Shown: piece by piece, positions 20,418 to 23,400 of the stretch
Layout of the letters: every line of letters begins with the position of its first letter
Numbering within the stretch: the stretch's first letter is position 1
NCBI GenBank assembly: GCA_965261025.1
Contig: OZ253438.1
Coordinates: forward strand, 1,320,001 to 1,352,000
DNA from: Chlamydiales bacterium
GTDB taxonomy: Bacteria > Chlamydiota > Chlamydiia > Chlamydiales > SM23-39
Direction: 5' to 3'
DNA: 32,000 nucleotides
Program-made: the position numbers and the translations under genes
Notes under the pieces: model-generated
What the model was told of the DNA's origin: nothing
Database searches by the model: none
Seen by the model: the letters and a program-made list of their open reading frames with translations, nothing else

Positions 20418-23400
20418 TTACTTCTTTGGATATAAATGAGATTCTGGACTATTTCTAGGAACAGGCGCGTTATTTGTATCTAAGTACTCATCAAGCCTAT
20501 TTTTGGAGTTCGGATTGAAACGGTGCCAATGTGATTCTCCTCTATGTCCTGCAGCTCCAGGTTTAGCTTTATCATGGCGGACCTTTTCCCCAGTTTTTTC
20601 ATTCTCAAATGTTCTATGTCCTTTTTTACCTGCATCAGGGTGGGTAGTTTCCTTCCAGTCAGGTTTCTTTAATAAATCATCAGGATTTGCTGGAAGGTTT
20701 ATTCCGCTGTCCTTTTTCATATTCGAGGAAGACCAGTTATCTAAGTCAGGCATCAAATCCCCTGAATAACAGTCTCCTGTAGAAGAATATCCTCGGTCAT
20801 TAAATGTTTCCACGAGTTTATATCCACCATAAGCGACGGCTCCAGCAGCAGCAGTATATGCAATCGCAGTAATACAAGCAGATATAGTAGGTAGAGCTAG
20901 CTCTGCACCCCAAAATAAAAGAGGAATTGCAAAGGCAAATTCTCCATTATCATCCTGGTATAAACAAGGATTATTGAAGAGGTACTGATACAAATTTGAA
21001 TGGTTTAAAGGTCCAATTGGATCAGGAGTTAACCAACGTCCTAATATAGGGATATAATACCGCTTTCCAAAATAGATTAGTCCTGTGTCAACATCATATC
21101 TTTTTCCTGCGTAAGCGTACGGGATCTCTGAATTGATCCCTACACCAAATGGATCACAGGTATTTTCTAGAAAGACTTTAGATGTCCTTGGATTGACTAA
21201 TACCCGGATCGTTCCTTGGACATCTGCTACAGGATAATAGGGTTGGTTATCAATCTCCAATACCACTGGGGCTAAAGAACCTGAGATTTTTAATTCTTTA
21301 GGCTCTCCTTTTTCAAAAGCCCCTACTTCTTCGTCTCCAAAGTAAAGATAAGAAATATTTCCTTTTTGTATCCTTCTCCCTAGCGCATCATAAATGATCT
21401 TTTCTCCATTTACTTGAATTAGTTGATCAAATTCATCGAATAAAAAGCTCTTTTGAATAAGGCAGCCATTTTCGTTAAAAATAAGGCCTTTGACTTGGTT
21501 CAACTCATCTGTTCCAAACCAATCGCCGTTTTGGGGTTGTCGGTTATAATGCTTGTCATAGGCAAAGCTAAATTGACCCGATGAAGAGATTAACTGACCA
21601 GCTCCATCATAGGCATAAAGATGAGCCCCCTTTCTGATTAAGTTGCCGGCCTTATCATAGGCGAGTTCTTCGCTAAAGAAGGGGCTAGCCTGAGCAATGC
21701 GTCGCCCCAATCGATCATAACGATAGCAACAGCCAAAGAATCCTGTTTCAGAAAGTACATGGCCATTTAGATCAAATTGATCATAGGTATGCGTATAAAG
21801 AAGATTGCCATTAGGACTAATTCTTTTGATCTTGACTAACAATGGTCCCTCATACTCATAGAGAATGGAGCTTCGATCAGGCAAAATCCTTTGGATGGGT
21901 CGATCAAAATCATCATAAGAGGTTCTAACTATAAGTCCTGTTACCAGCTCTTCCTTAATGACGTTGTCAAAAAGATCGTATTCTCGAAAAAAGCCTGTTC
22001 CACGGATTATACGCCCTAGCGCATCATATTGAAATTCCCTCGATCCTAATCGAGTAAGGTCCCCGTTTGTTGTATATTCATAATGCACCACTGTTCCATC
22101 TGGTTTTGTTTTAGTTTGTATTTTACCACCTGGAGTATAAGCCCAAGAGGTCGTTCTTTGCCCCGATTCGGTAAGAGAAGATTTAAAGCCCTCCAGGGTG
22201 TAGGTAAAGGTAAGATGATCTTGGGAAACTAAACGAAGTGCTCTATCATATGAGAATTCCTCTAAAAGGCAGCCAGGTACTTCTTTTTTGAGAAGCAAAC
22301 CATGTGCGTTGTAGATCTCAATACGCCTTGCGCCTTTGGGATCTTGGGTCGTTTTTTCAAGGGATCGATTCCCTTCTTCATAGGAGATGGTTGTTTTTGC
22401 TCCCTCGGCGTCCACTTTCTCTACCAGACGATTGTAAGGATCGTAAAAAAAACTTACGGTGTCTTGTTTGGTAATGGAAGCGATATTACCTGCTGGATCA
22501 TAACTATAGGAGGTACTAAGTCGTCCATCGATTGATTTTTTCAAGACTCTGCCTAAAACATCATTTTGATAGGTGGTAAAGCGAGCCTTTTTTTCCATTT
22601 TCGATAAAAAGCCAAGAGGGTCATAGGAAAATTGGGTGACTCGATCTCCTCTCGTTTCTTTGATCTTTTGGCCGGATAAGTTATACTCGTAATGGGTAGA
22701 AGCTCCTAGGGGATCTTTTTCCTCCAGGAGATTGTAGGCACCGTAAATATAGCTTGTTTTGCGCGTCCCCACTGTTTTAGAGAGCCTTCGTTTCAGAGAA
22801 TCGTAGACGTAAGATGTTTTGAGACCGTCTGGATTTATCACAGACAGCAGTGTGCGATTCGGGGCATAACAAAAAACCTCCTTTCCTCCATCTGGACGTA
22901 CAATACTAAGAGGATCCCCATAGCTATTGGGTTGAGTAGTGGTTGTAGCTCCATAAGCATCTTTTCTCGTAATTTCTCTTCCAAAATCATCATAGGTAAA
23001 TTCCAAAAGGATAGGATCTTCTTCTATCCAGACGGGTTTGCCGTGCACAGGATGGTACTGATAATGTGTTTCTAATCCCAAGTAGTCAGTCTTTTGGATT
23101 AATTCATCAGAAGAGTTAAAATCAAAACGAGTTATATGAGCGCCTTCTTGAAGAGTAATGAGCCTTCCTTTGCCGTCGAAGGAGCGCTGGATGATTTTAT
23201 TTTGTGCAAAAGGGAGTTCTTTGATCTGTCTTCCTCTGCCATCATAGGAATAAGAGGCTATTTGACCCAGGGGATTAGTTTCCTCTAGAAGATTGCCATG
23301 ACTATCATAAAGCCTGGTCGTTTGATAGGCTAGAGTATCGTCACTTCCATAATGAATCTCTTTAGTTACATGACCAAAGCGGTCATAAACAAAATGTGTT

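Follow-up and report, generated by a model that had tools for sequence, protein, structure and literature searches.

The end of a Chlamydiales Rhs protein: a probable toxin-immunity pair of unnamed families behind a constant hydrophobic module

Rhs polymorphic toxins such as RhsA of P. protegens and Tse5 of P. aeruginosa, and likewise TcC, comprise a YD-repeat shell, an Rhs-associated core domain and a variable tip, with an immunity gene directly downstream. The core ends with the consensus PxxxxDPxG[W/L/F], and the catalytic aspartates are D1324 and D1346 in RhsA (PMC8765631). In Tse5 they are D1141 and D1164, and the cut lies between L1168 and I1169 (PMC10684867). The Rhs gene described here is located on the minus strand of a 32,000-nucleotide stretch of a Chlamydiales genome (assembly GCA_965261025.1, contig OZ253438.1, positions 1,320,001 to 1,352,000), which is called the window in the following. 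It shows the same arrangement, including two predicted catalytic aspartates, here 23 residues apart, and a PxxxxD..G motif. Unlike RhsA, Tse5 and TcC, the window protein carries a predicted Sec signal peptide and not PAAR/VgrG or TcA/TcB partners, comprises DDNGE in place of DPxG[W/L/F], and is conserved for about 77 amino acids past the predicted cleavage site, the junction at which tips are swapped thus not lying at the motif. Cryptic Rhs- and contact-dependent-inhibition-type toxin-antidote pairs are also known from obligate intracellular bacteria, namely CRCT/CRCA of Rickettsia with an antidote of about 140 amino acids (Verhoeve et al. 2022, PMC9111745). The window pair resembles these, whereas Chlamydiae, Verrucomicrobia and Vibrio are all absent from the 155 toxins with CRCT tabulated in the supplement (PMC9111745), and this comparison of taxa gave no evidence of homology. 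Altogether, the locus probably comprises the toxin-bearing end of an Rhs polymorphic toxin exported through Sec and, behind it, the immunity gene. The features are as follows.

20418..25040, minus strand: Rhs/YD-repeat polymorphic toxin gene, 1540 amino acids from the TTG at 25040 (open reading frame list)
24936..24980, minus strand: predicted Sec signal peptide, amino acids 21-35 (MHWLLLFVFTLRAFA, then SP), read from the sequence
20943..21152, minus strand: Rhs-associated core domain (C-terminal plug and aspartyl autoprotease region), amino acids 1297-1366, TIGR03696
21021-21023, minus strand: predicted first catalytic aspartate, D1340 (in DPIG)
20940..20969, minus strand: core-end motif P1358-CLYQ-D1363-D-N-G-E1367, a variant of PxxxxDPxG[W/L/F]
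20952-20954, minus strand: predicted second catalytic aspartate, D1363
20940-20942 and 20937-20939, minus strand: E1367 and F1368, between which the cut is predicted
20811..20939, minus strand: hydrophobic pre-toxin module F1368-V1410, 43 amino acids (FAFAIPLLFWGAELALPTISACITAIAYTAAAGAVAYGGYKLV), kept in at least 30 Rhs ends
20709..20810, minus strand: polar linker, amino acids 1411-1444 (ETFNDRGYSSTGDCYSGDLMPDLDNWSSSNMKKD), about 34 amino acids, kept across Rhs proteins with different tips
20421..20708, minus strand: toxin domain at the C-terminus, family unnamed, amino acids 1445-1540, about 95 amino acids, from alignment A1
20412..20417, minus strand: Shine-Dalgarno sequence AAGGAG, adjoining the Rhs stop codon TAA (20418-20420) and 5 nucleotides ahead of the ATG at 20406
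20002..20406, minus strand: probable cognate immunity gene, 134 amino acids (MNISKYTDYFHDGY...), beginning 11 nucleotides past the Rhs open reading frame

Both the YD-repeat shell and the Rhs-associated core domain, two hallmarks of Rhs polymorphic toxins, were found in the window protein. In the Pfam scan, RHS_repeat (PF05593) matched in 8 stretches (E=1e-48, 163 bits), accompanied by a weak match of DUF6531, while the NCBIfam models TIGR01643 (YD repeat, E=1e-36) and YD_repeat_2x were matched as well. The core domain reached 64.4 bits with TIGR03696 (Rhs_assc_core), compared to a cutoff of 32.5, and covered profile positions 3-75 of 76. The true start of the protein is probably the ATG at 24980 and not the TTG at 25040; a homologue fragment in locus L004 begins at the equivalent methionine. 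The signal peptide was called by reading the sequence and its hydrophobicity (Kyte-Doolittle 12-residue mean of 2.18) and not by a predictor, and it would imply Sec-dependent export.

The last 206 amino acids of the Rhs protein (20421-21038) consist of RWLTPDPIGPLNHSNLYQYLFNNPCLYQDDNGEF followed by 172 amino acids. A first-pass annotation of the window, made from the letters alone, had quoted this tail correctly, with 172 residues after DDNGEF, DDNGE at the place where DPxGL would be expected, and a His-rich segment. A search with the 172-residue tail returned 41 relatives (best E=5e-80), many of which align over the last 95 or so amino acids only, while others align only over the hydrophobic part and possess a different C-terminus. 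With a profile of a 33-sequence alignment of the domain (A1), searched against 1.84 billion representative proteins, 531 clusters (50% identity) were obtained at E<=1e-3, 401 of them at 1e-10. Taken together, the strength and the number of these homologues show that the tail is not a chance open reading frame. Of 175 relatives, 122 have no more than 5 amino acids after the domain, and 160 have no more than 10. The majority of the carriers are Rhs proteins; besides these, Rhs proteins with PT-HINT or Peptidase_C39, phage portal proteins, PG_binding_1 proteins and chlamydial proteins with signal peptide and membrane anchor were observed. Such an extreme C-terminal position on several unrelated carriers is characteristic of polymorphic toxins. 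In the reference genomes, scanned with a second profile (A2), the hosts were mainly Chlamydiota, but also Verrucomicrobia, Vibrio, Aliikangiella and Pseudomarimonas (Gammaproteobacteria being among the classes), an alphaproteobacterium, Aerophobetes and Erysipelotrichaceae. A tblastn search of the toxin domain against the GenBank phage and plasmid collections gave no match.

Among 174 sequences, P10, D50, H64, H66, D81 and H95 (A1 numbering) are conserved to at least 97%, followed by an acidic residue at position 24 (99%) and by H27, R36, F38, N40, T43, N69 and S94, all within 85-99%. In protein numbering, the near-invariant residues correspond to D1490, H1504, H1506, D1521 and H1535, and E1464, H1467, R1476, N1480, N1509 and S1534 are also conserved.

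The partner of the domain is the 134-residue protein encoded directly downstream. An immunity homologue follows the toxin at a distance of 10-60 nucleotides in nearly all of 36 loci, which include two orphan pairs in L004 and high-GC (guanine-cytosine) contig L002. The exceptions comprise a contig end, two Firmicutes loci and one degenerate fragment. A small conserved downstream gene that co-varies with the toxin type, as observed here, is what distinguishes toxin-immunity loci. The immunity family has 59 database relatives, all of them unnamed. Neither a signal peptide (0 of 99 homologues) nor a membrane segment was found, and the isoelectric point amounts to 5.2 in the window and to about 5 on average in the family. 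The AlphaFold2 model is mostly beta, with a predicted local distance difference test score (pLDDT) of 87.8. Pfam, NCBIfam and Foldseek against the PDB gave no match for this protein, which is not Imm32, Imm50 or Imm53. The GC content is 27-30% for the immunity gene, about 40% for rhs and 37% for the window, and the toxin tip shows no drop. Altogether, the C-terminal domain and the 134-residue protein can be regarded with high confidence as a toxin-immunity pair. The traits of the 134-residue protein are those typically seen in cognate immunity proteins of the cytosol, and the linkage to a soluble immunity protein lacking a signal peptide argues for a cytoplasmic target of the toxin.

In L001 (4765-8315), L006, L011 and L020, a single Rhs gene is followed by an array of two or three immunity paralogues, and L001 additionally contains a truncated orphan toxin fragment (5192-5290). 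In L049 (2263-3135), two immunity genes of the window's family stand behind an Rhs gene with a different tip. These extra copies are orphan cassettes left after tip replacement.

Some further carriers deserve mention. The toxin domain forms the C-terminus of two phage portal proteins (PF04860, E=3e-84 and 9e-21) that are independent of each other, namely L029 (1519-3270) and P0108. The latter shows a Gly/Ala-rich hydrophobic stretch ahead of the domain, and downstream of the L029 fusion a weak, partial match to the immunity family was detected (E=5e-5). A toxin fused to a portal protein may be packaged in the phage head. Furthermore, apparently stand-alone toxins of about 100 amino acids starting with MxKKKQIDxRLP were found (L003 1049-1351, L016 2884-3294, P0007, P0009-P0011, P0014 and P0017). 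Their upstream frame runs into a conserved ...GVSQYAxNQLA segment, which is in-frame in P0012, and they resemble truncated or orphaned ends of another chlamydial carrier that is not an Rhs protein (cf. P0052, P0060, P0070) rather than true small genes. One locus with Rhs end, toxin and immunity gene, L027 (CAMCLJ010000073.1), is deposited as 'MAG: Chlamydia trachomatis'. Since C. trachomatis is not known to have Rhs toxins, this label probably belongs to a mis-assigned environmental chlamydia.

Between the predicted cut and the toxin domain, the window protein shows a part that does not vary with the tip. The stretch of about 40 hydrophobic, Gly/Ala-rich residues pointed out in the first-pass annotation is real and amounts to 43 amino acids, which appear as two Gly/Ala-rich helices with a proline between them. 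The polar stretch that was said to follow is also present, although at about 34 instead of about 45 residues. A scan of metagenome contigs with the module only, and thus independent of the toxin domain, revealed 23 loci. In all of them, the module ([EQ]F-AFAIPLLxWGAELALP...YGGYK) begins directly after the cleavage motif, followed by the kept linker (...GDYYSGDLTP..NW..MK) and then by one of at least 6 unrelated types of tip. Six loci have the window-type domain behind the module and four an Ntox24-like tip (23.0 bits compared to a cutoff of 24), L043 has an Ntox37 tip (28.0 bits compared to a cutoff of 27.8), and at least 3 tip types are unassigned. The tails of L041, L043, L044 and L045 share ...GDYYSGDLTP...NW..MK and diverge afterwards. 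Since module and linker are common to Rhs proteins with differing tips, the tip-swap junction is placed at the end of the linker. As a description of the anatomy, it is thus very likely that amino acids 1368-1444 form a constant pre-toxin module with a recombination junction near amino acids 1441-1446.

The tips without a Pfam family on this scaffold (L038, L040, L046, L049, L052, L054, L057) include the patterns NPFDGPVDG...PHxHxPG...WLP, TEPKDL...IHYWE...HGFKF and ...EKDHIHFNDG...NGW, and a fourth tip, GWLKP...KYETY...KRYDGPG, matched Ntox24 only weakly (E=0.011).

Neither PT-TG (PF14449) nor any other Pfam family was found on the module, the 206-residue tail giving only a chance match to a holin (E=0.4); PT-TG was also not matched on the carriers P0045, P0047 and P0087. 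A membrane-helix-like segment lies within 130 amino acids upstream of the domain in 55 of 113 carriers, among them a portal fusion and PG_binding_1 proteins. These segments are not homologous in sequence, and their recurrence supports a functional link of membrane-active segments with the domain. As in the C-terminal toxin of Tse5 (Tse5-CT), the hydrophobic segment begins right after the autoproteolytic site, here a predicted one, and would have to be shielded in the shell. Unlike in Tse5-CT, the hydrophobic part comprises only 43 amino acids, a globular domain with the immunity specificity follows, and the partner is a soluble immunity protein. In the prePAAR/transmembrane regions of Tse6 and RhsA and the cytoplasm-entry domains of the CdiA C-terminal toxins (CdiA-CT), too, a segment for membrane action or entry stays constant while the cytoplasmic toxins are exchanged, which is what we propose for the module. 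The transmembrane regions of Tse6 and RhsA are N-terminal, lie outside the shell and need Eag chaperones, while those entry domains of CdiA are soluble and bind receptors. The comparison of the module with these translocation helpers, which was made through Pfam only, revealed no sequence relationship. A role of the module as translocation device is put forward tentatively, at slightly less than even chances.

The first-pass annotation had called the end of the core non-canonical. Indeed, two positions depart from PxxxxDPxG[W/L/F], with Asp for Pro at position 2 and Glu for a hydrophobic residue at position 5 of the final five, DDNGE (nucleotides 20940-20954 of the 20940-20969 encoding PCLYQDDNGE). 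Compared to the motif DPxG-x18/19-DPxG, the window protein keeps DPIG at D1340 and is varied at the Pro of the second half. Nevertheless, the term is overstated, as D1340, P1358, D1363 and G1366 are all retained at an Asp-Asp spacing of 23. For comparison, 49 distinct related Rhs ends were collected. At position 2 these show P in 39, D in 4, L in 3 and I, Q and S in 1 each (10 of 49 without Pro), and at position 5 E in 22, R in 11, Q in 8, L in 3 and others in 5. The residue after the motif is F in 33 of 49, and the spacing is 23 in 43 of 49, the same as in Tse5. Further metagenome Rhs ends show DDTGE, DNTGE, DRNGE, DKDGQ, DQDGQ and DLNGE. Since the same positions vary widely among related ends, DDNGE is, as judged from the sequences, a mild variant common in this Rhs clade, which gives no reason to doubt cleavage and on its own is of little consequence. 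A cut after E1367 is predicted to release a fragment of 173 amino acids including F1368.

For the toxin domain itself, the profile search against polymorphic-toxin families and the AlphaFold and Foldseek analyses proposed in the first-pass annotation were carried out, and no characterised family or fold was matched, in line with its statement that the tip could not be assigned to a named toxin family. Neither Pfam nor NCBIfam gave a match even at E<=10 for the window's domain and 32 relatives, and PHROG likewise gave no meaningful match. Sequence and profile searches against the PDB returned only four matches at chance level, to ribosomal protein uL15 (best E=2.3). The AlphaFold2 model based on the alignment (pLDDT 88.5, predicted template modelling score 0.79) consists largely of beta strands (22-24, 35-40, 46-50 and 64-68), and its helices are all short. 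With this model, Foldseek found nothing below E=1 in the PDB, for which the best 50 of 69 matches at E<=10 were listed, or below E=0.1 in BFVD. The top PDB match, 5T87 (CdiA-CT of C. taiwanensis; E=1.4, template modelling score 0.3-0.44), is a protein without known activity. A full-text search for the motif strings of the domain found no paper, one supplementary file on the PT toxins of Nachmias et al. contained no motif match, and for the crystallised PT1 and PT7 of that study the PDB searches returned nothing significant. Cupins were dropped on motif spacing alone: G-x5-HxH matches, but no barrel is predicted. LAS/M23 peptidases, 2H phosphoesterases and HIT were likewise dropped on motif spacing alone.

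Among the named families, Ntox37 (PF15535) and Ntox24 (PF15529) of Zhang et al. 2012 are comparable in several respects. Both are small, mostly beta C-terminal tips from Chlamydiae and other phyla, and tips resembling them sit at the same place behind the same module on sister Rhs proteins. Ntox37 and the window's domain even share a loose pattern, [FW]xNxxTGExxxxD...HW[HD]. This resemblance is not significant and serves as a lead only (hhalign against two Ntox37-like tips 1%, P=0.04, with a two-sequence template). Unlike Ntox37, the window's toxin has no PF15535 match and its partner no Imm32 match, whereas PF15535 does detect the sister tip of L043. Against the Ntox24-like tips hhalign gave 2%, and against six sister tips in total at most 2% probability. 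A scan of viral contigs for Ntox37-like tips yielded one locus, which does not suffice to improve the profile.

Based on these observations, the following mechanism is proposed. The YD-repeat shell would enclose the last 173 residues, and the aspartyl autoprotease (D1340, D1363), by homology, would cut after E1367. The released fragment would lead with the 43-residue Gly/Ala-rich hydrophobic helical hairpin and the polar linker. While the shell would shield the hairpin before delivery, the hairpin would then insert into the target membrane and help the toxin across. The last 95 or so amino acids would represent the variable warhead, a compact, mostly beta domain with an Asp/His cluster (D50, HxH64-66, D81, H95), which may act in the cytoplasm as a metal-dependent hydrolase, most likely on nucleic acid. 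The soluble 134-residue protein would protect the producer. For the warhead as a metal-dependent enzyme we see about even chances, and its specific assignment as a nuclease is a guess that is rather doubtful. The first-pass suggestion of a membrane-translocation helper fused to a small nuclease fits the modular anatomy, with the module ahead of at least 6 tips, while the HNH nuclease part is unsupported.

Several points weigh against the proposed mechanism. The module's best 19-residue Kyte-Doolittle mean of 1.64 is borderline for a membrane helix, and about half of the carriers have no hydrophobic segment, so that the domain has no strict need of one. The tip had been described as basic, which applies to the window's copy with an isoelectric point of 9.5 but not to the family (mean 6.9, range 4.3-10); since the family is not consistently basic, the nuclease guess is weakened. 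No profile or fold match indicates an activity, and the clustering of the conserved Asp and His residues in space is assumed. Moreover, the whole case is built on sequence and models.

Alternatively, the conserved residues could be those of an RNase that works without metal, as barnase/T1 or colicin E3 do, with catalytic Glu1464, Arg1476 and His1504 and a structural role of the other His and Asp residues. The conserved motifs W-x-E, R-T-F-x-N and D-H-Y indeed put Glu, Arg and His in this order on successive strands, and an Ntox24-like domain is among the sister tips that this scaffold carries, Ntox24 being a predicted endoRNase (Zhang et al. 2012, PMC3482391). However, hhalign gave less than 1% against barnase/binase/RNase Sa and against RNase T1, a weak test because these templates, entered by hand like that of the colicin E9 DNase, are shallow. 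In addition, no microbial RNase fold occurs among the Foldseek matches listed, and five near-invariant His/Asp residues suit a metal site better, which makes the metal-independent RNase improbable.

It is similarly improbable that the toxin is aimed at a eukaryotic host, for example an amoeba, with the immunity gene only preventing self-harm before export. Most relatives originate from metagenome-assembled genomes of Chlamydiota, no contact-dependent secretion genes lie nearby, and the Rhs shells of Tc toxins deliver to eukaryotic cells (PMC8765631). On the other hand, Vibrio, Aliikangiella and Pseudomarimonas, which are free-living, possess the same pair, the domain is also found on phage portal proteins, and orphan immunity arrays are the usual mark of inter-bacterial conflict.

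The first-pass annotation had considered the His-rich segment compatible with a beta-beta-alpha-metal (HNH/EndoVII-like) nuclease. In such a His-Me finger DNase, H1504 (DH) would be catalytic and N1509 and D1521 would be metal ligands. The domain resembles Tox-HNH, GH-E, Tox-GHH, Tox-SHH and Tox-HNH-EHHH in being a small, His-rich C-terminal tip with a cytosolic immunity protein, and the local pattern D-H-x-H-x2-N-P...D...D is well conserved (D63 84%, H64 99%, N69 94%). Nonetheless, no family of the HNH type (HNH, GH-E, Tox-GHH, Tox-SHH, Tox-HNH-EHHH, AHH/WHH/LHH) matched any of the 33 members at E<=10, the confident model comprises no helix after the hairpin and hence no beta-beta-alpha metal fold, and no His-Me finger structure is among the 50 top-ranked PDB matches. 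The comparison with the colicin E9 DNase gave 2% and aligned a different region. The assignment is thus not borne out and has a very low probability.

Just as poor are the prospects of the idea that the hydrophobic helices are themselves the toxic part, causing pores or depolarisation like the shell-packed hydrophobic Tse5-CT (PMC10684867), with the C-terminal domain as accessory or targeting part: small-xxx-small Gly/Ala-rich helices right behind the cleavage site and the recurrence of hydrophobic segments upstream of the domain would agree with it, but since the same module stands ahead of unrelated tips, all of which have a downstream gene of their own, it is the C-terminal domain with which specificity and immunity go. 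Besides, the immunity protein is soluble without membrane segment, the domain also occurs on carriers without hydrophobic segment such as Vibrio locus L026, and only 43 of 173 amino acids are hydrophobic.

Regarding the surroundings, no type VI secretion system (T6SS) genes, VgrG, PAAR or Tc partner were found among the genes adjoining the Rhs locus. The genes around it are housekeeping genes and a small set of the polyketide synthase/nonribosomal peptide synthetase (PKS/NRPS) type, located just past the immunity gene (12720-19394), a content unusual for a small chlamydia-like genome. It comprises the following genes.

12720-15467, minus strand: ketosynthase-acyl carrier protein-thioesterase protein
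15474-16259, minus strand: methyltransferase
16359-17567, plus strand: major facilitator superfamily transporter
17577-19394, plus strand: adenylation-peptidyl carrier protein protein

The stretch separating the immunity gene from the NRPS gene contains remnants of an IS4/IS5-family transposase (19495-19961), with a DUF4096 match at 19545-19802 (minus strand) and short overlapping open reading frames on both strands. These remnants suggest that a mobile element was once active where the Rhs locus ends. An open reading frame at 3524-5044, unrelated to the Rhs tip, combines Schlafen AlbA_2 and HATPase_c_4 domains, the architecture of putative DNA-binding or defence-associated ATPases.

Rhs toxins with their immunity proteins are a well-known system, and unassigned tips are common. 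New are a sizeable toxin family that has neither a name nor a structural relative, the immunity family that goes with it, and a constant hydrophobic module downstream of the Rhs cleavage site that is common to many tips. No paper describing the toxin family, the immunity family or the module was found, the coverage of the literature being incomplete. Since new toxic activities come in large part from Rhs tips, the window's family represents a concrete target, which extends over its 531 clusters, several phyla and phage portal fusions and offers obvious candidate catalytic residues. It is possible, though unlikely as a whole, that the domain represents a novel enzyme fold whose Asp/His catalytic site has gone unrecognised and the hairpin a self-contained translocation device for delivery without an injection machine (neither T6SS nor TcA). 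The anatomy of the module is a candidate answer to the question of how a Sec-exported Rhs protein, in bacteria without a type VI system, passes a cytoplasmic toxin across the target membrane. If this holds true, the hairpin would let chlamydia-like bacteria deliver interchangeable cytoplasmic toxins without an injection machine.

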